A model generated the notes under the pieces. It saw nothing but the letters and a program-made list of their open reading frames with translations. It was not told where the DNA came from and ran no database searches. The position numbers were made by a program, and so were the translations under genes. From a virus, in the IMG/VR virus record IMGVR_UViG_3300018080_008436, positions 58,998-122,997 of that record: a DNA stretch of 64,000 nt. One strand, written 5' to 3'. Each line of letters starts with the position of its first letter. The stretch's first letter is position 1. This document shows, in pieces, positions 15,371-59,793 of this stretch.

Positions 15371-15763
15371 TTAATACAGCGGGAGATTTCCAGTGATTTC
15401 CTTTATTTGGTCAAAGTCTGCTGGCCCAATTGAAATTCCAACCCAGACTTTGATAGATTTCTTTAATGCCTCTGATGGAACCAAGTCTTCCCACCGACAA
15501 ACAGTAAGTCCTGACTTGACTGCATCATCATAAATATCTTGAAGTTCTTCTTTGGTGTTAACAGCTAGAATAGAAATGTATGGTTTACTCATCCATTCCT
15601 GTTCTTCTTCTGAAAATGGTCTCCCCGCCAGGATGCGAGATCGCATCCATTGGTCTGAAAGATGCGCGACCTGAGCCGCAAGCAATCCTTCAGGGAGTTC
15701 GAACCCTTTTCTCACTACACATGTTAATCTTGTATTAGCCATTACTCGCTCTCCTATGTTCAT
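15371..15763 (-). CDS. peptidyl-tRNA hydrolase, PTH2 family
   Basis: RLTCVVRKGFELPEGLLAAQVAHLS matches the PTH2 K-x-V-x-V-R...G-K-xAAQ-x-H motif. Confidence 0.6.
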   Translation of the reverse strand: MNIGERVMANTRLTCVVRKGFELPEGLLAAQVAHLSDQWMRSRILAGRPFSEEEQEWMSKPYISILAVNTKEELQDIYDDAVKSGLTVCRWEDLVPSEALKKSIKVWVGISIGPADFDQIKEITGNLPLY

Positions 15764-18506: not shown

Positions 18507-19199
18507 TTAGGATTTCTTAATCCCAATGAAGCCAACTTCTTCGTATCCAACAAGACCGCATTTTTTTCTGAGTGGATCATCAGCGAGTAAATATGTTCTG
18601 TCTTGTCTGATAAACTTGTGGACCTCATAACAACCAAGTTCCTCAAAAATCTTTATAAGTCTCTTGTTCTCTTTATCCAAATAATCATCTACTTGTGGAA
18701 CAAAAGGATCTTTTCTGTTGATAATTGCGTTCAATCTTGCTTTAGGAGTTAAAAGCTTATACTTGGTGAAATATTTACGAGCATCCATCTCTGGTAAACA
18801 CGCAATCTCAAAAGTGCGAGATAAGGCTCTTTTTCCAGTTGTGACTTGGATGACTTCTCCAGAGCGATTCTCCATTACATAAGTCATTTCCCTTGGATTT
18901 CTTTCAATTATCGCCAACGCACCTTGTGGAAGGTTATGAACGACAAGTTTACATCTCGGAGAACTTGAAGTCTTGGAAGAAATATATATGGAGTCACTCC
19001 AAATATGCCCAACCCCCTTTAAATCACTAAAGGTACAAGATTCTTTTATTTTATTAAATAACTTTGAAGTACAAACAGTGGCAGGTATAAGTGCTAAAAT
19101 CGACTTGATAAAGTTTTTTCTATTCATTGTTCTTTCTCTTTCTTTAATTGTATGTTGGAGCGGTATACCGAACTCGAATCGGTCCCTCAACCTTGGCAA
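18507..19199 (-). CDS. hypothetical protein with N-terminal signal/TM segment
   Basis: 230-aa ORF containing KNFIKSILALIPATVCTS. Confidence 0.35.
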   Translation of the reverse strand: MPRLRDRFEFGIPLQHTIKERERTMNRKNFIKSILALIPATVCTSKLFNKIKESCTFSDLKGVGHIWSDSIYISSKTSSSPRCKLVVHNLPQGALAIIERNPREMTYVMENRSGEVIQVTTGKRALSRTFEIACLPEMDARKYFTKYKLLTPKARLNAIINRKDPFVPQVDDYLDKENKRLIKIFEELGCYEVHKFIRQDRTYLLADDPLRKKCGLVGYEEVGFIGIKKS

Positions 19200-19309
19200 A
19201 GTTGCATGCTACCACTAACACCAATACCGCATAAAGCGCCCCTCTCCTGATTTGAGCTTCACTAGATAGGCTTAAGAGATCGGACTTGACATACGTCTAT
19301 GCCCATTCT

Positions 19310-19389
19310 TGGTGGACCAAGAGGGATTCGAACCCTCGAAAGAATGCGTCCACTATCGGCTTTAACACTCTTCCTAGCCTAATTAGCCC
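19310..19389 (-). tRNA. tRNA-like gene (anticodon not resolved)
   Basis: The minus strand has a canonical T-arm GAGGG-TTCGAAT-CCCTC, a 3' TTGGTCC-A-CCA end, and a matching 5' acceptor strand GGGCTAA. The D and anticodon arms are irregular. Confidence 0.45.
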
Positions 19390-19391
19390 AT

Positions 19392-19470
19392 TGGCGCGGA
19401 GGGTTGGATTCGAACCAACGTCTCTAGGTTCTTACGCCTAGTGCAATAACTTCCAATCCAGATCCTTTTG
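19392..19470 (-). tRNA. tRNA-like 3' portion (5' boundary uncertain)
   Basis: T-arm GTTGG-TTCGAAT-CCAAC and a 3' CCTCCGC-G-CCA end are present. The only matching 5' acceptor strand (GCGGAGG) lies ~200 nt upstream at 19587-19593. Confidence 0.35.
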
Positions 19471-19599
19471 GCCTTAAAGGTCTAGAAAGGTCGAAGATTA
19501 ATAATATTCCGCTTCGGTAAAAACGTAAGATTATCTAGAAATCTTAGTCCCCTAGCATTCAATTATCAACCTGTCCTCTATGCTACCTCCGCATAAATT

Positions 19600-19684
19600 T
19601 GGAGCGAAAGAAAGGAGTCGAACCTTTTAATCAAGAGTCTCTACGACCGATAACGAGCCTTGAAGTATTACCACATACTTTCGC
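19600..19684 (-). tRNA. tRNA-like, long (type-II-sized, 82 nt + CCA)
   Basis: Acceptor GCGAAAG/CTTTCGC, T-arm AAAGG-TTCGACT-CCTTT, and an encoded CCA. The internal arms are non-canonical. Confidence 0.45.
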
Positions 19685-19815
19685 TAAAGTGAGGATTTTA
19701 ATAGCCGAGAGTACCTCACAATTCTCTCCGCAGTGATTATGATTGAGACCGTCAAATCACTCTTGGCTACGCATTACTGCGCTGTCCCAAACCTATAAAT
19801 AGGTCAACCAAACGT

Positions 19816-19902
19816 TGGAGCGGGTAACAGGATTCGAACCTGCGTAAACTATTCGCCTCGAACTTGGAAGGATCGCGCTCTACCTGACTGAGCTATACCC
19901 GC
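19816..19902 (-). tRNA. tRNA (D-arm GCTC-AGTCAGGTA-GAGC; ~15-nt variable region; anticodon loop possibly CUUCCAA)
   Basis: Acceptor GCGGGTA/TACCCGC, T-arm GCAGG-TTCGAAT-CCTGT, and an encoded CCA. Confidence 0.55.
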
Positions 19903-19908
19903 AAAACC

Positions 19909-19982
19909 TGGAGCGGATAGAGGAATTCGAATCCTCGCCAAGAGGTTGGAAACCTCGTATGCTACCATTACACCATACCCGC
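19909..19982 (-). tRNA. tRNA-Gly (UCC)
   Basis: The structure GCGGGTA-TG-GTGT-AATGGTA-GCAT-A-CGAGG-TTTCCAA-CCTCT-TGGC-GAGGA-TTCGAAT-TCCTC-TATCCGC-T-CCA closely resembles T4 tRNA-Gly. Confidence 0.8.
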
Positions 19983-20224
19983 ATAAAAAGATGCCCCTAC
20001 AACCCCCGCTAAAGGGAATGAACTGTGACGAATGACATTTTCGAGCGCTACTCCAATGTCAATTTTCACGTTGCCCAGCATCACCTGTAAGCGTCTTCTC
20101 TGGATTCATTGTCCAGCGACTCATTCACCAAAATGATTCCCATTTTCGCTTTATCCAGTAGGTTCCTGGGGTGGGCTAAAACCACCGCCATAGTTCATCA
20201 TTCTTTGCAGGCGCATAAAAAGTC

Positions 20225-20300
20225 TCCCACTGGGACTTGAACCCAGAACTCGCATACATTTCCCAAGGTTGTGCTCGTTAACTCTGACGCTCAAGGTTCC
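20225..20300 (-). ncRNA. tRNA-like 3' element (T-arm CTGGG-TTCAAGT-CCCAG, no encoded CCA)
   Basis: A T-arm and 3' acceptor strand TGGGAGA are present, but the only matching 5' strand (TCTCCCA) is ~155 nt upstream (20378-20384). It may be analogous to the small stable tRNA-like RNAs of the T4 tRNA region. Confidence 0.3.
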
Positions 20301-20384
20301 TGTACGCCAGCGAATCCTCGTTCTTATATCAGCGAATCTATCTGACCAAACAAGGAACACCTATACCATTTAGCGATGGGAGAT

Positions 20385-20464
20385 TGGTGGGTTCGGCAGG
20401 ACTTACACCTGCATTACCTCTCATGGGGGAATCGAGAGGGTCTTAAAAATTAGATGACGAACCC
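20385..20464 (-). ncRNA. tRNA-like element with non-canonical T-loop and enlarged anticodon-region loop
   Basis: Acceptor pair GGGTTCG/CGAACCC and an encoded CCA, with T-arm GCAGG-TGTAAGT-CCTGC and a candidate stem CTCTC/GAGAG enclosing 11 nt. Confidence 0.35.
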
Positions 20465-20467
20465 AAA

Positions 20468-20587
20468 TGGTGGCTCAGGTAGGATTTTACCTACAATGCA
20501 TGTTGGGGGATTTCGGCCAGCTATACCTGTAACCTACACCAATCATTGCAAGGATTGGTACTTCGCGTATAGTTCCGCCACTGAGCC
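20468..20587 (-). ncRNA. tRNA-like stable RNA (~117 nt + CCA)
   Basis: Acceptor pair GGCTCAG/CTGAGCC and an encoded CCA, a T-arm-like hairpin GTAGG-TAAAAT-CCTAC, and internal hairpins (ACCAATC...GATTGGT). Confidence 0.35.
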
Positions 20588-20826
20588 ATAAAAATGTTTC
20601 TGGTAGGTTTTGCACCTACATCCTGATGAGACTCACCGTGTAGTACAGCATTACCAAAGGCACTCTGCCGCCCCATTACGACATCAAACGCGACACTTTA
20701 AGCTCACACTATCAAGAAGGAGGTCACCGCACACTGGGTCAAATAGTGACTTTCCGAGCTTGCCTGCGGGTTACCCCGCTTCAGAAACAGTAAATTGTTA
20801 AAGATCACTTTTCTCTTTCGAGAAAT

Positions 20827-20927
20827 TGGTAGCGAGAGCAGGAATCGAACCTGCGTCAACAGAGATCATGACTCTCTGTGGGAAAGCTCATTTCGTTTCG
20901 GAAAGAGCGACCAACATCCTTCTCGCA
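20827..20927 (-). ncRNA. tRNA-like with CAU anticodon loop and an extra 23-nt hairpin in the D region
   Basis: T-arm GCAGG-TTCGATT-CCTGC, 3' TCTCGCT-A-CCA end, and anticodon stem-loop CAGAGA-GUCAUGA-UCUCUG. A GCTCTTTCCGAAACGAAATGAGC hairpin is inserted, and positions 1 and 72 are T and T. Confidence 0.35.
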
Positions 20928-20928
20928 T

Positions 20929-21017
20929 TGGTAGCGGAGGCAGGACTCGAACCTGCGAGGAATTTTACTTCCTTCTGGCTTATGAGACCAGCGAGTTACC
21001 AACTACTCTACTCCGCA
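20929..21017 (-). tRNA. type-II (long-variable-arm) tRNA with CAU anticodon
   Basis: Folds cleanly as TGCGGAG-TA-GAGT-AGTTGGTA-ACTC-G-CTGGT-CTCATAA-GCCAG-[AAGGAAGTAAAATTCCTC]-GCAGG-TTCGAGT-CCTGC-CTCCGCT-A-CCA. The discriminator is A73 and positions 1 and 72 are U and U. Confidence 0.6.
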
Positions 21018-21077
21018 ATCAACATGTTACTAGTATAACTCATGTAAAAGAGATTTCAAGCCCAAAGAAAAAAAAAT

Positions 21078-21785
21078 CTAATCAAGCCATTTTTCGCTCT
21101 GGTCCCCAAGGATCTCTTTTACAGATCCATACAGATTTTGAACAATATCAGTTCTGTGTAATTTTATCCTACACACTCCATAGGGATGCTTAACCTTCCT
21201 GCTAGATGTGTGGTAATTTTGTTTAACAGTGGCTTTGTTCAAATTCTCTTTTGACAAACCTAGAACACCCAGCCAATAAGTTTCTATATCTTCAAGGGTC
21301 AATCCATTGTTGGTATAACAATTTATCCTAACCTTCCATTCTCTTTCTTCGACAGAAAAAAACTCGTTGACACAATCAAAGAAATATCTCACCAACATTG
21401 GGTCTGTGTTAGAAAACGCAACATAATTTCTTGCTTTATCACCCTCTGCGATAAATAGCGCGTAAAAGAATCCTTTCTTGATAGAAGCTTTATCGCTATT
21501 TTTTATGTGATACCTTCCATTACTTTGGCATTTCACTCTCTTTTCCCTAAGCTGTCGATTCTTAGTCTCATGAGCGATTTTAATATCACTTCCGCTTTTT
21601 TTCAAGTTTAATGCAAATTCTTCAGGAACAATCACGTCACGAACCCAAAGGCTAACAGTGCTTTTGGCAACACTTAGCTCATTTGCAATCATCCCCAAAG
21701 ACCACCCTCTTTTTCGGAGGGAGATAGCTTGTTCTTTTTCTTTCTTTTTCATTTTCGAACCTCTGTTTTCGAACCTATATTTCAT
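21078..21785 (-). CDS. HTH DNA-binding protein, possibly a homing endonuclease
   Basis: N-terminal HTH (LRKRGWSLGMIANELSVAKSTVSLWVRD) and a weakly LAGLIDADG-like segment (GFFYALFIAEGDK). It sits directly beside the tRNA cluster, as seg-type endonucleases do in T4. Confidence 0.4.
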   Translation of the reverse strand: MKYRFENRGSKMKKKEKEQAISLRKRGWSLGMIANELSVAKSTVSLWVRDVIVPEEFALNLKKSGSDIKIAHETKNRQLREKRVKCQSNGRYHIKNSDKASIKKGFFYALFIAEGDKARNYVAFSNTDPMLVRYFFDCVNEFFSVEEREWKVRINCYTNNGLTLEDIETYWLGVLGLSKENLNKATVKQNYHTSSRKVKHPYGVCRIKLHRTDIVQNLYGSVKEILGDQSEKWLD

Positions 21786-39365: not shown

Positions 39366-40391
39366 CTAGAACGTACCATCTATAATGTTTACAAAATGCT
39401 TTCTAATAAAAGAAGCACATGCGTTATTGATCGTTTTGTTAACTCGTTTTTCTTCACTCTTTTCGAGTTTCTCAAAAATAGTGGATTCATCTTTCAGCAT
39501 ATCTTTTCGAACATCCTGAGCAAAGGCCCCCATGAGTTTTCCGAATTCTTTCTGACTGATCTCTCCAATATGAGACAGAACATTTCTTAGTCTGTTTTCT
39601 GTAATGTATTCGTCAGCAACTTGAGTTACTCTTTGGGCCTCTTCAGAAACCACTACAGGTTTTCTTTCTTTAGGAACTCTTTTCCTTTCTGTGAACTTTT
39701 CATTCTTTGATTTAAGAATGACTCTTGATCCACAAGGGTCACAAATAGAAACCAAAGGCTTGAGGACATTCCCCTCGCAGATGTTACCCTCAATCTCTGG
39801 AAGACCATAATGCTTATAAGTCGGATCTGGATAATCATTAGGATAGTCCAAGCACTCTTCAAATGTTCCAACATGCAAAGCTTTGGCGTAAAGGGTGAAT
39901 CCAGCTTCATCCATTACTTTAACAAAATTATCATAGCTCATAGGAGTGCTCTTCTCTCCCCTAATGTAGATATCAAATGGAAAGAAATCAACGTCTGGAC
40001 AGTACCAAACCTTGTTCTGAACCATCTTTACGCCTTGAACAGGCTCTACATCTGGATGAGGATATCTTCCACCAAACAGCTCCCCATAAATCTGAACAGT
40101 AGTGTCCTCATCCAGATTAAACATGTTAAGGATAATCTCCCTAGCCAAATTGACCCTTACTAGGTAACGATTTCTCACCTTCTGGAAGTTGAAAAAGTTT
40201 TCGTCTTCTGACAGCCAGCTTGTTCTTTTTGAGCACTTGACTCCATTACTATCAGCATACATTGAAAAATTAGCACCATGGATCTTAGTTGTAACGATCC
40301 AGGGATTTGCGGTATAACCACGGGTTACGTAGCTATCAATGGTTTTCTTTCTGTCAGAGTTGTCAATCTCGGTGTACTTCCTGAAATTCAT
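39366..40391 (-). CDS. RNA ligase, T4 Rnl2 family
   Basis: MNFRKYTEIDNS...WIVTTKIHGANFSM carries the KxHG nucleotidyltransferase motif I and is collinear with T4 Rnl2 (MFKKYSSLENH...VAREKIHGTNFSL). Confidence 0.85.
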   Translation of the reverse strand: MNFRKYTEIDNSDRKKTIDSYVTRGYTANPWIVTTKIHGANFSMYADSNGVKCSKRTSWLSEDENFFNFQKVRNRYLVRVNLAREIILNMFNLDEDTTVQIYGELFGGRYPHPDVEPVQGVKMVQNKVWYCPDVDFFPFDIYIRGEKSTPMSYDNFVKVMDEAGFTLYAKALHVGTFEECLDYPNDYPDPTYKHYGLPEIEGNICEGNVLKPLVSICDPCGSRVILKSKNEKFTERKRVPKERKPVVVSEEAQRVTQVADEYITENRLRNVLSHIGEISQKEFGKLMGAFAQDVRKDMLKDESTIFEKLEKSEEKRVNKTINNACASFIRKHFVNIIDGTF

Positions 40392-47482: not shown

Positions 47483-47722
47483 TTACTGCATGATCATAAT
47501 AATACTTAATGCAATAACCATAAACACAATCATGCCAATTTGAGCAGTAAGGAACAGGATATAGCCGTCTTGTCTGGAAGCTTCTCTATACCACTGAGGA
47601 TTTCTCATTTTTGTAAGCCACATGATTGGAAAACCAAAAACAACAAGTGTGGAAAGTAGAATCCCCAAAATAAGTTTTAGAGCGAAGGCCGTGAAACCAA
47701 AGATAAAACTTATTACTCTCAT
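47483..47722 (-). CDS. small membrane protein
   Basis: Two transmembrane helices. Confidence 0.35.
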   Translation of the reverse strand: MRVISFIFGFTAFALKLILGILLSTLVVFGFPIMWLTKMRNPQWYREASRQDGYILFLTAQIGMIVFMVIALSIIMIMQ

Positions 47723-48450
47723 TTTTTACCACAGCATTTTTTATAATTTACGGGCTTCCCGTTGACTTCCTTACCGCATGGACAAGGCTCATTTCTCCCA
47801 ATCTTCTCTGATCGTACAGTCAGATGGTCTGGAGCGACAAGCTCTTCTTGAACACCATCAAGGTGATCTTGTTCATGTTGCCAAACCTGAGCTTCCCATC
47901 CTGAGAGTTCTGCGGTTTTCTTTTCTCCTTCCTGGGTCCAGTATTCGACATCGATTCTGAGATATCGGTCAGCAATAACCTTTTTATTTGGCCATGTCAA
48001 ACACCCTTCAACTCTACTTTGAGGATCACCATGTTTGGCAACAATCCTGGGGTTGATGAAAACCTTCCATTCCCCATCACCTTCACCTTCCGCCTTGGAA
48101 CAGAACATCCGATACATGAATCTATCGCCATTGATGTCCTCTAACTGATTGGCGGCGAGTCCCACTGCATTTCCAGTTTTTCTGGAACGTTTGAGAAACT
48201 CGTTAATTATTGCTTGATTATCTTTGATCCACTGATCGATGTCCTCAATCTCTGGGACTTTGGGAGTCTGTTCATTTGTGGCAATCTTCAACATAATTGG
48301 TTTCCTTTCAAAAACTGATTCAAATTCACTGATGGCCTTTTGTGCTTTAGCCATCTCACTAAGATGCCTAAGTTTTATCCTGTCAATATCAAAATATGAC
48401 TTGGGCATAAGATGTACATTCTCAAGATCCTTGTAATCTTTATGACCCAT
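47719..48450 (-). CDS. def: peptide deformylase with C-terminal SEC-C zinc-binding motif
   Basis: All three PDF motifs are present: GNAVGLAANQ (GxGLAAxQ), EGCLTWP (EGCLS), and QHEQDHLDG (QHExDHL). The C-terminus PCPCGKEVNGKPVNYKKCCGKK is a SEC-C motif. Confidence 0.85.
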   Translation of the reverse strand: MGHKDYKDLENVHLMPKSYFDIDRIKLRHLSEMAKAQKAISEFESVFERKPIMLKIATNEQTPKVPEIEDIDQWIKDNQAIINEFLKRSRKTGNAVGLAANQLEDINGDRFMYRMFCSKAEGEGDGEWKVFINPRIVAKHGDPQSRVEGCLTWPNKKVIADRYLRIDVEYWTQEGEKKTAELSGWEAQVWQHEQDHLDGVQEELVAPDHLTVRSEKIGRNEPCPCGKEVNGKPVNYKKCCGKK

Positions 48451-58467: not shown

Positions 58468-59793
58468 TTATTTTCCGTTAGGTGAAAACTCAACCAAGTA
58501 CTTCAGGTTAACTTGGGACGTTCTGTAAACGATCATTTCGTTGTTCATGACCCCAGACTTGTTCGCCTTAGCGAAAGTGGAATCAGTATTACGAACAGGG
58601 AAACCGCTTCCGTAACGAGCAGGGACATGATAATTGCCCATTGCCATATCCAAAAGGAACATGAAGCAATTGTTGTCAGCCTTTCCGCCCCAATAGCCAT
58701 AAGCGTAGTTTAACGCCTTCGTAGACTGATCTGAGGCGTAGACCCCATTCCCGAACATTCGGCCCGTACAATGGCTTGAAGAGGCTGGAGGAATGACCAG
58801 ACCGCCCTTCAGGATCGAAAGAAGGTTGGATGCTCTTGTACCATGCCATAACTCCCAGATGTTGTCCATCTTCGCCCCATCCAATTCGAAAGCCTGACGG
58901 ACAGTATTGATGTCAACCTTGTAAATGGTTTTGACATCCAGGTGATAACAGGCATGTCTTGACTGACGGGTTTTCCCATACATCTTTTTAATATGGGCCA
59001 GAGTCTTGGAATCTTCTACCAGATCCAGTTGAACATCGAAGACCTGTTCTTCAGGAAGTTTCACAGTCTTCTTGCGTCCAGGCTGAGTGGTTGCAGTAAC
59101 CAAAGATGCCTGTAAAGCATCAACAATTGACTTCTGTTTCTGGACCTTGGCAAGATCAGACCAGAAATTATTCACATCCAGTCGCTTTCTTCCAATGTTC
59201 TGAGGGACCAACATAAGGTAGTCATTGGTCAAGTCGCCTAATTTTGCAGTGTAACGACCTTTGGCAACCATATCACCAATCTTGACCAGGATGTCATTGG
59301 CATCATCAATATTACCTTGAGTGACGATACCCATGGGCGTTGAAAACAGCCCTGTAGTATCATTGAAGGTAATCTGACCGCCAGTAGCAGATGAGATCTG
59401 ATGGGCGTTGACTTTCGTCAGATAGGTGATCAACTTTGCAACGTTGGGGTTGTTATATTTGATTTGTTTCTTGGCAACGCTTTCGAGGTTGGCCTTCGCA
59501 ACGGTTTTCTGAGCGGTCTGAGTCGTTGTTCCACCTTCAACGATCTCAATCTCTCGATAAGCGATCTCACCATTTCGACCAGAACGAAGTTTAGATCTAA
59601 TCTTGCTTTCAGCAAACTTTCGGCCTGCCGCTTCACTACCTTTCTGGTAGGTTCGGCTTTGTCCTGAATCTCCTACGCGACCATAGCGGACGGTTACTTC
59701 TCCATCGTCATAGATTTCAACATTCCAGAATTTGTTGTTGTTCTTTTTGTGATCGCTTTTGATGAAATGGCGTTTTTCGATTAATGTACCCAT
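58468..59793 (-). CDS. WGR-domain poly(ADP-ribose) polymerase (PARP)-like ADP-ribosyltransferase
   Basis: N-terminal WGR domain (KFWNVEIYDDGEVTVRYGRVG). C-terminal PARP catalytic H-Y-E triad region: LWHGTRASNLLSILKGGLVIPP...GRMFGNGVYASDQSTKALNYA...NNEMIVYRTSQVNLKYLVEF. The last segment is near-identical in pattern to the PARP1 C-terminus [24 protein letters not shown]. Confidence 0.8.
   Translation of the reverse strand: MGTLIEKRHFIKSDHKKNNNKFWNVEIYDDGEVTVRYGRVGDSGQSRTYQKGSEAAGRKFAESKIRSKLRSGRNGEIAYREIEIVEGGTTTQTAQKTVAKANLESVAKKQIKYNNPNVAKLITYLTKVNAHQISSATGGQITFNDTTGLFSTPMGIVTQGNIDDANDILVKIGDMVAKGRYTAKLGDLTNDYLMLVPQNIGRKRLDVNNFWSDLAKVQKQKSIVDALQASLVTATTQPGRKKTVKLPEEQVFDVQLDLVEDSKTLAHIKKMYGKTRQSRHACYHLDVKTIYKVDINTVRQAFELDGAKMDNIWELWHGTRASNLLSILKGGLVIPPASSSHCTGRMFGNGVYASDQSTKALNYAYGYWGGKADNNCFMFLLDMAMGNYHVPARYGSGFPVRNTDSTFAKANKSGVMNNEMIVYRTSQVNLKYLVEFSPNGK

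Follow-up and report, generated by a model that had tools for sequence, protein, structure and literature searches.

A probable initiator-type tRNA(CAU) with an added variable arm in the tRNA array of a very large phage

In bacteria, class II tRNAs are those for leucine, serine and tyrosine (plus selenocysteine), while few type I tRNAs are as conserved as the initiators. Here we describe tRNA A, an 89-nt tRNA with a CAU anticodon and a long variable arm, encoded at 20929..21017 on the minus strand of a 64,000-nt stretch of viral DNA (hereafter the window; positions 58,998 to 122,997 of IMG/VR virus record IMGVR_UViG_3300018080_008436). We consider that A is, with a probability of roughly 0.65, a functional phage-encoded initiator-type tRNA(CAU) to which a class-II-like hairpin has been added in the variable region, a reading derived from sequence comparison. 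A long arm together with an anticodon unusual for class II has been described in nev-tRNAs (PMC3333845) and allo-tRNAs (PMC5389517), and A resembles both in this respect; however, theirs are class II bodies with leucine or serine identity in which the anticodon has changed, whereas A would be a type I initiator body that has gained an arm. Closer relatives already stand in GenBank under the bare product lines 'tRNA-Met' or 'tRNA-fMet': tRNA t23 of Bacteroides phage crAss001 ('tRNA-Met'; MH675552, 5721-5807; 87-88 nt), the same gene labelled tRNA-fMet in Kehishuvirus 'tikkala' (OQ198717, 97845-97931), and a tRNA-Met of Leptolyngbya phage Lbo-JY46 (PP438436, 122480-122563; 84 nt). Like A, these genes of 84-88 nt combine a CAU anticodon with an initiator-like acceptor stem and carry a variable-region hairpin, but they share only ~60% identity with A, and in the crAss-type members the arm is shaped differently and 11:24 is U11:A24 where A has A11:U24. 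A full-text search, with most subscription journals outside its coverage, found nothing on long-arm initiator or methionine tRNAs in phages. A belongs to a widespread phage family of initiator-type tRNAs with an added arm, of which we found no description in the literature searched.

A is a genuine tRNA. ARAGORN calls a tRNA-Met(cat) of 89 nt at this position, and the Rfam tRNA model (RF00005) matches it with 57.5 bits (gathering score 29; E = 5.3e-11) in an alignment where 1:72 is the sole non-standard pair and 16 bases are inserted in the variable region. With ViennaRNA, the minimum-energy and centroid folds are the same, a cloverleaf with a fifth arm at -31.9 kcal/mol (z = -3.2), an energy reached by 1 of 200 shuffles. 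The three programs bear out the type II-like fold that an initial annotation had proposed for 20929..21017 and place it on the minus strand, and the D-arm GAGT/ACTC, the CUCAUAA loop, the 18-nt variable stem-loop, A73 and the U1-U72 mismatch named there are all present in the sequence and the fold. The acceptor stem has 6 bp plus U1xU72 (U1 GCGGAG / CUCCGC U72), followed at the 3' end by the A73 discriminator and an encoded CCA. U8 and A9 precede a D stem of 4 bp (G10 A11 G12 U13 / A22 C23 U24 C25) with the 8-nt loop AGUUGGUA, and G26 follows it. The anticodon stem CUGGU/GCCAG carries the 7-nt loop CUCAUAA with U33, in which ARAGORN and Rfam both place the anticodon CAU (34-36) at 20982..20984, minus strand. 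In the 18-nt variable region, A44 and C48 flank a 16-nt hairpin, AGGAA-GUAAAA-UUCCU (20958..20973, minus strand), with a 5-bp stem and a 6-nt loop; it is seen in the fold, and the homologous helix covaries in relatives. The T arm, GCAGG-UUCGAGU-CCUGC, gives a 5-bp T stem next to a set of 7-bp acceptor positions. All nucleotides of the tertiary interactions are kept (U8, A14, G15:C48, G18G19, U54U55C56 and A58).

The body of A carries the marks of an initiator. For formylation and initiator identity, an unpaired 1:72 is the major formyltransferase determinant (Giege and Eriani, 2023; PMC9976931), and A73, G2:C71, C3:G70 and G4:C69 are minor determinants, to which R11:Y24 is added; for MetRS, CAU alone essentially suffices (PMC9976931). 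In A, positions 1 and 72 are unpaired as U1xU72, the four minor determinants can all be read in UGCGGAG...CUCCGCU-A, position 11:24 is A11:U24 within GAGU/ACUC, and the anticodon loop is of the initiator kind, with CAU in a 7-nt loop and U33. The E. coli reference tRNAs for comparison were fetched by coordinates and then aligned; blastn of A against E. coli genomes gave no match at E <= 1. Outside the arm, A is 72% identical to the E. coli initiator metY, 59% to metT (elongator Met), 58% to ileY (Ile2) and 51% to leuW (Leu), and it reaches 83% with a normal-length phage initiator-type tRNA (MT837313). With metY, A shares the CUCAUAA loop, the unpaired 1:72, A73, G2:C71, C3:G70, G4:C69, A11:U24, G29:C41 and G30:C40. 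It departs from metY, and from the short type I variable loop of 4-5 nt in general, in its 18-nt variable region with a 5-bp hairpin (5 nt in metY). With the class II tRNAs (Leu, Ser and bacterial Tyr), on the other hand, A shares a stem-loop arm of comparable size between positions 44 and 48, but its 4-bp D stem and 8-nt D loop are those of type I, its Levitt pair is G15:C48, and it holds none of the Leu, Ser or Tyr identity sets.

A is one of many such genes. We scanned IMG/VR with the pattern CTCATAA, a gap of 20-32 nt, and GGTTCGANTCC, which forces a variable region of ~12-24 nt and leaves the acceptor stem unconstrained. At least 120 viral loci matched, and at least 85 of the matches were called tRNA(cat) of 82-93 nt by ARAGORN. 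Among the matches listed, ~60 of the 84 parsed viral genes start N-GCGG (or GYR) and end CCGC-N, with position 1:72 mismatched or weakly paired; the 1:72 pair is UU in 17, CA in 15, UA in 13, CU in 4 and AA in 3, A73 is present in 72, of the three G:C pairs typical of initiator anticodon stems only the middle one, G30:C40, is near-universal, and the variable regions fold more stably than their shuffles (mean -2.4 vs -0.6 kcal/mol). An exact search of viral contigs for the 21-nt anticodon-arm and variable-region pattern of A gave no match. A metagenome scan that required the exact anticodon arm of A and a long gap returned 62 matches, 59 of them tRNA(cat) of 83-93 nt, with UU (27), CA (19) and CU (5) at 1:72 and A:U at 11:24 in 50 of 56.

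The arm is conserved in these relatives as a helix. From a MAFFT alignment, RNAalifold retrieved the four standard helices, with covariation, but not the arm, since arms that differ in length had been misaligned; we therefore built a covariance model in which the arm was specified (R1, with 14 seed members) and counted pairs on the alignments that it made. A is among the top scorers with 89.9 bits, although, as A is one of the 14 seeds, this match is partly by construction; independent family members score 55-101 bits, including 55.8 and 69.1 bits for the annotated genes of the crAss001 type and of Lbo-JY46. In the R1 alignment of 53 metagenome matches, 89.4% of the cells of the arm helix are paired, compared with 40-50% in controls with slid partners, computed for the structure as a whole, and each of the five arm pairs shows double changes, in 8-26 sequences. 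In the wider alignment of viral members, 70% of the arm is paired. Compensation can also be read directly from the raw list of arms, for instance in ACGACC/GGUCGU, ACACC/GGUGU, ACCCC/GGGGU, CUUCC/GGAAG and GAGAC/GUCUC. Of 86 distinct initiator-like arms, 75 fold, typically with 3-6 bp and one unpaired base 5' of the stem, and their loops are rich in A (53%), GAAA and CAAAA being the commonest. Judged from such comparisons, the extra arm is a selected structural add-on common to a large phage-borne family.

Several points weigh against reading A as a functional initiator with a selected arm. Three G:C pairs in the anticodon stem of initiators are reported to be strongly conserved and required for initiation (PMC6393288), and A has two of the three, G29:C41 and G30:C40, its 31:39 being U.G where metY has G:C. 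The 1:72 mismatch of A is UxU and not the CxA of E. coli metY. The covariation alignments were fitted to a model that contains the arm and so lean towards it. Lastly, the role of the arm as a shield or handle, discussed below, is one that we purely infer.

For the most part, the family appears to be restricted to phage tRNA arrays. The same pattern, run on species-representative cellular genomes, found 37 long-arm tRNA(cat) genes, of which 20 are of another kind, a single 88-nt chromosomal gene of Burkholderiaceae whose D arm is of the class II type and whose 1:72 pair is G1:C72. Most of the initiator-like cellular matches lie in stretches where 8 kb or less holds 10-30 tRNAs, and they would be phage arrays binned into those genomes. 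A second CAU tRNA directly beside a family member is common, and a normal-length initiator-like tRNA is also present in about a fifth of the loci (at least 12 of 58 viral loci and 11 of 55 from metagenomes), these counts being lower bounds as the loci are incomplete.

The Burkholderiaceae gene occurs once per chromosome in Paraburkholderia, Burkholderia, Ralstonia, Cupriavidus and Trinickia (loci L127, L129, L141, L148, L152 and L155 and 14 more genome loci), and genes of this type are also listed for phage loci L047, L005, L010, L011, L060 and L112. It has A73 and a variable stem that occurs in both orientations, UCC-GAAA-GGA and GGA-GAAA-UCC. The tRNA-Ile2 of Burkholderia, according to the tRNAscan-SE 2.0 paper, contains a group I intron. 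The initial annotation had noted that type II architecture normally belongs to Leu, Ser or Tyr tRNAs, and this Burkholderiaceae gene would fit a Leu/Tyr-type idea better than A does.

Directly next to A, at 20827..20927 on the minus strand, lies B, a 101-nt element that is probably an initiator-like CAU tRNA paralogue, as judged from its fold and its R1 score of 33.0 bits (E = 3.8e-9), which was obtained over the acceptor, anticodon and T arms. The GUCAUGA loop that the initial annotation had noticed here is indeed present, with G32 and G37, on an anticodon stem of 7 bp. B ends like A, with U1xU72, A73 and CCA, and its T arm agrees with that of A at 16 of 17 bases. In place of the D region it has a 3-bp mini-hairpin and an inserted 23-nt hairpin, GCUCUUUC-CGAAAC-GAAAUGAGC (20886..20908, minus strand), which both the fold and a deletion scan locate. 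ARAGORN and Rfam called no tRNA on B; in the deletion scan, removal of ~25 nt (positions 21-45) alone gave an ARAGORN call of tRNA-Met(cat). Shorter deletions produced artificial Val and Gly calls with the CAU hairpin as the variable arm, which we rejected because six unpaired bases would separate the 'anticodon' stem from its arm. The GUCAUGA loop (G32/G37 as opposed to C32/A37) marks a family of normal-length initiator-like phage tRNA(CAU) genes, found in viral contigs at L279, L283, L256, L258, L259 and others; we therefore read B as a second, differently altered initiator-like paralogue, which may serve the same purpose as A or may be decaying.

Other identities for A have to be weighed against this reading. 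The initial annotation had suggested that A73 plus the long arm could confer leucine identity, with A charged with leucine while reading AUG or AUA, either as recoding or as a tool for an AUA-rich genome. We consider a leucine recoding device unlikely on sequence grounds, and missense recoding by any Leu, Ser or Tyr identity highly improbable. The long arm and A73 are both there, variable-arm tRNAs with 'wrong' anticodons have precedents in nev-tRNAs (PMC3333845) and allo-tRNAs (PMC5389517), and SerRS recognizes its tRNA mainly via the variable arm (PMC9976931). However, the E. coli Leu determinants are A73, A15:U48, G18G19 and A20a, the long arm not being among them (PMC9976931), and A has only A73 and G18G19, together with G15:C48, no 20a and an 8-nt D loop; its Leu determinants are incomplete, whereas the initiator/formylation signature of its acceptor and D stems is complete. 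For serine, the arm and G2:C71 are present, but G73 and G1:C72 are replaced by A73 and U1xU72; for tyrosine, A73 is present, but U35 and G1:C72 are replaced by A35 and U1xU72. Allo-tRNAs have a 12-bp acceptor branch in an 8/4 or 9/3 configuration (PMC5389517), while the branch of A is 7/5. Its D stem has 4 bp as in type I (3 bp in leuW), and its body is nearest to initiators. Codon usage in the window is ordinary, with AUA making up 16% of Ile codons (11 per 1000), AUG at 22 per 1000 and all three stop codons in use, which speaks against both recoding and an AUA-rich genome. With the leucine and recoding reading rejected, A is read as an initiator-type tRNA with an added variable arm. The annotation's fallback, an unusual Ile2 or Met isoacceptor, fared better in its Met half, which the initiator features sustain. 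That A is a tRNA-Ile2, with C34 converted to lysidine by TilS and AUA read as isoleucine, is very unlikely. CAU with A37/A38 and A73 suits Ile2 as well as Met, and AUA does occur at the frequency just given, but the minor determinants of E. coli Ile, C4:G69, U12:G23 (as printed in the review), C29:G41 and G16 (PMC9976931), are all absent from A, which has G4:C69, G12:C23, G29:C41 and U16. The 1:72 mismatch and A11:U24 are marks of initiators and not of Ile2, and identity is 58% to ileY against 72% to metY. The window, where a tilS homologue had been suggested as a check, encodes no TilS-like protein, its sole PP-loop protein being a clear NAD synthase.

Two further readings, each of which we regard as unlikely, keep the CAU tRNA and change its use. 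An elongator tRNA-Met for internal AUG decoding, in which the 1:72 mismatch would be incidental, agrees with CAU in a canonical loop, with the presence of only two of the three initiator-typical G:C pairs and with the fact that elongator tRNAs are common in phages. Yet the mismatch is kept across the family as UU, CA, CU or AA, together with G2:C71, C3:G70 and A11:U24, which points to selection for an initiator/formylation signature. A 1:72 mismatch also disfavours EF-Tu binding, and A is only 59% identical to metT. Alternatively, A could act outside translation, by drawing off, as a decoy or sponge, host toxins or nucleases directed at initiator tRNA, or by serving as a primer or regulatory RNA; the extra arm and the insertions of B would then be tolerated, ribosome use not being required. 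Host tRNases and toxins against tRNA-Met/fMet do exist, aberrant tRNA-like RNAs abound in the array and are hard to see as decoders in every case, and B has lost a normal D arm. Against such a role, A keeps all of its tertiary-interaction nucleotides and an exact CAU loop, and these nucleotides are kept family-wide over wide divergence, whereas a pure decoy would be less constrained. Finally, it is extremely improbable that the extra hairpin is an intervening sequence or neutral insertion, removed from or irrelevant to the mature RNA, or that A is a pseudogene. Neighbouring tRNA-like genes do bear inserts at varied sites (the D region of B, the variable region of a Gly-UCC tRNA, and inserts of 100 nt or more), but the hairpin of A lies exactly at the class II arm site (44/48), more than 50 diverged relatives retain its helix by way of many compensatory changes, and the arm loops are biased in composition. 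No bulge-helix-bulge motif is seen in A, and bacteria are not known to have a splicing pathway for the 44/48 position. An archaeal-type intron was likewise rejected, the missing bulge-helix-bulge motif and the phage context both speaking against it.

If A is an initiator-type tRNA, the following course of events can be proposed. The best sigma-70-like promoter match in the region, TTGAAA-16-TATACT (21032..21059, minus strand; 10 of 12, a consensus match only), ends 14 nt upstream of the 5' end of A, which would make A the first gene of the tRNA array, transcribed from this promoter-like site. MetRS would charge A with methionine, as proposed because CAU is the dominant determinant; methionyl-tRNA formyltransferase would formylate it, the features needed for this all being present; and at the ribosomal P site A would serve to initiate phage proteins, which the phage's own peptide deformylase would then process. 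A predicted peptide deformylase is encoded at 47719-48450 on the minus strand (Pfam E = 3.4e-25; motifs GLAANQ, EGCLT and HEQDH); it has a ~90-residue N-terminal extension and a C-terminal CPCG...CCGK motif similar to the C-terminal zinc motif of SecA. A peptidyl-tRNA hydrolase of the archaeal/eukaryotic PTH2 type is predicted at 15371-15763 (minus strand; E = 5.5e-11), 3.4 kb from the tRNA array, and no MetRS or formyltransferase is encoded within the 64-kb window.

Given that the arm sits on the variable/elbow face, remote from both anticodon and acceptor end, it most plausibly alters recognition by other tRNA-binding proteins. The arm would leave untouched the acceptor end and the anticodon that MetRS, the formylase and the ribosome need, and would change which proteins bind the elbow and variable face of A. 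It could act as a shield, protecting the supply of initiator from host nucleases or toxins that target tRNAs, or as a handle or mark for a phage factor. Initiator tRNA is cleaved by VapC-type enzymes, and tRNA-Met(CAU) is cleaved within its anticodon arm by a bacterial Schlafen. For phage tRNAs whose anticodon loops are altered, an escape from anticodon nucleases of the host has been proposed (van den Berg et al., 2023; PMC10264068). A resembles those tRNAs as a phage copy of a defence-targeted tRNA that is altered where decoding is unaffected; it differs in that the alteration is an added arm rather than a loop substitution, and no nuclease is known to be blocked by such an arm. The G32/G37 loop of B and the normal-length GUCAUGA family fit the escape idea directly, and the presence of a loop-altered second copy in the same phage is consistent with that idea, though no proof of it.

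More tentatively, it is possible that long-arm initiators form a phage-specific, partly orthogonal start-tRNA system that survives, or is selectively recognized, when the host initiator is destroyed or blocked, whether by abortive-infection tRNases and toxins or by the phage itself. If so, phage translation could start while host translation cannot, and the two altered copies (A in its arm, B in its loop and D region) could represent bet-hedging against different attackers. An abundant, covarying family that is present in a cultivable model phage, crAss001, suggests that phages tinker with the start of translation, beyond codon supply. The family could therefore serve as a testable handle on why phages carry tRNAs, with evasion of tRNA-targeting immunity set against codon supplementation. 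The arm would also be a natural case in which an initiator scaffold accommodates an addition, of possible interest to engineers of orthogonal initiation.

Judged from the genes in the window, the source is a very large phage; the window forms a stretch of a metagenomic contig of 523,871 bp (ENA ERZ27256796 k141_941235). G+C content is ~40%, and almost all long ORFs are on the minus strand. The phage genes include RIIA/RIIB, an RNA ligase (39366-40391) and ThyX, and two sigma-70-like factors and an M50 protease are also encoded. RIIA is at most 34% identical to that of any cultured phage, which leaves the phage without close relatives for comparison, and megablast of the tRNA region (18-23 kb of the window) against cultured phages gave no match. 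Adjoining A, a protein with a helix-turn-helix (HTH) domain is encoded at 21078-21785 (minus strand). A search of viral contigs for loci with this neighbour protein found none; its homologues comprise one syntenic relative (L248, with a 92-nt tRNA(cat) alongside) and two that are non-syntenic. The closest HTH relative (46% identity) again adjoins a long-arm tRNA(cat), of 92 nt and on the opposite strand, and more distant homologues (~30% identity) occur in metagenome-assembled genomes of the CPR/Parcubacteria type.

The remainder of the same-strand array (19156..20826, minus strand) is dense, and its tRNA-like genes are mostly aberrant: it comprises three tRNA-Gly genes and at least seven oversized or aberrant tRNA-like elements with an acceptor stem and T arm. 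Among these, all on the minus strand, an 80-nt element (19310-19389) has an acceptor stem with G3:U70, a T arm, one long hairpin and ACCA, and gives a weak tmRNA-like Rfam match. A 201-nt element (19392-19592) is closed by GCGGAGG/CCUCCGC-G-CCA, and ARAGORN with introns enabled reads it as a tRNA-Ser(gga) with a 106-nt insert. A weak tRNA-Sec-like match lies at 19600-19684, and elements of 80-200 nt with an acceptor stem and T arm occupy 20219-20383, 20400-20480, 20480-20597 and 20592-20788. Oversized elements of this kind (95-250 nt, acceptor stem plus T arm) often lie beside called tRNAs in the viral loci, as counted without a null control. In viral loci L005-L124, the tRNAs of at least 82 nt called by ARAGORN include Asn(gtt) (10), Ile(tat) (6), Thr(tgt) (5), Cys (3), Lys (2) and His (2); since these isotypes are normally type I, long variable regions may be a general habit of phage arrays. 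One of the three glycine genes of the array, a tRNA-Gly(UCC) of 87 nt at 19816-19902 (minus strand), has an enlarged variable region, with ~13 extra bases (GAGGCGAAUAGUUUAC) and no clear hairpin. The jumbo phage BF and related Erwinia phages have tRNA-Gly(UCC) genes of 83-85 nt with a near-identical insert (GAGGCGAAUAGGUUCCA), the copy in Serratia phage BF being tRNA18 (L002, 1503-1587), and this insert is conserved as sequence and not as a helix.

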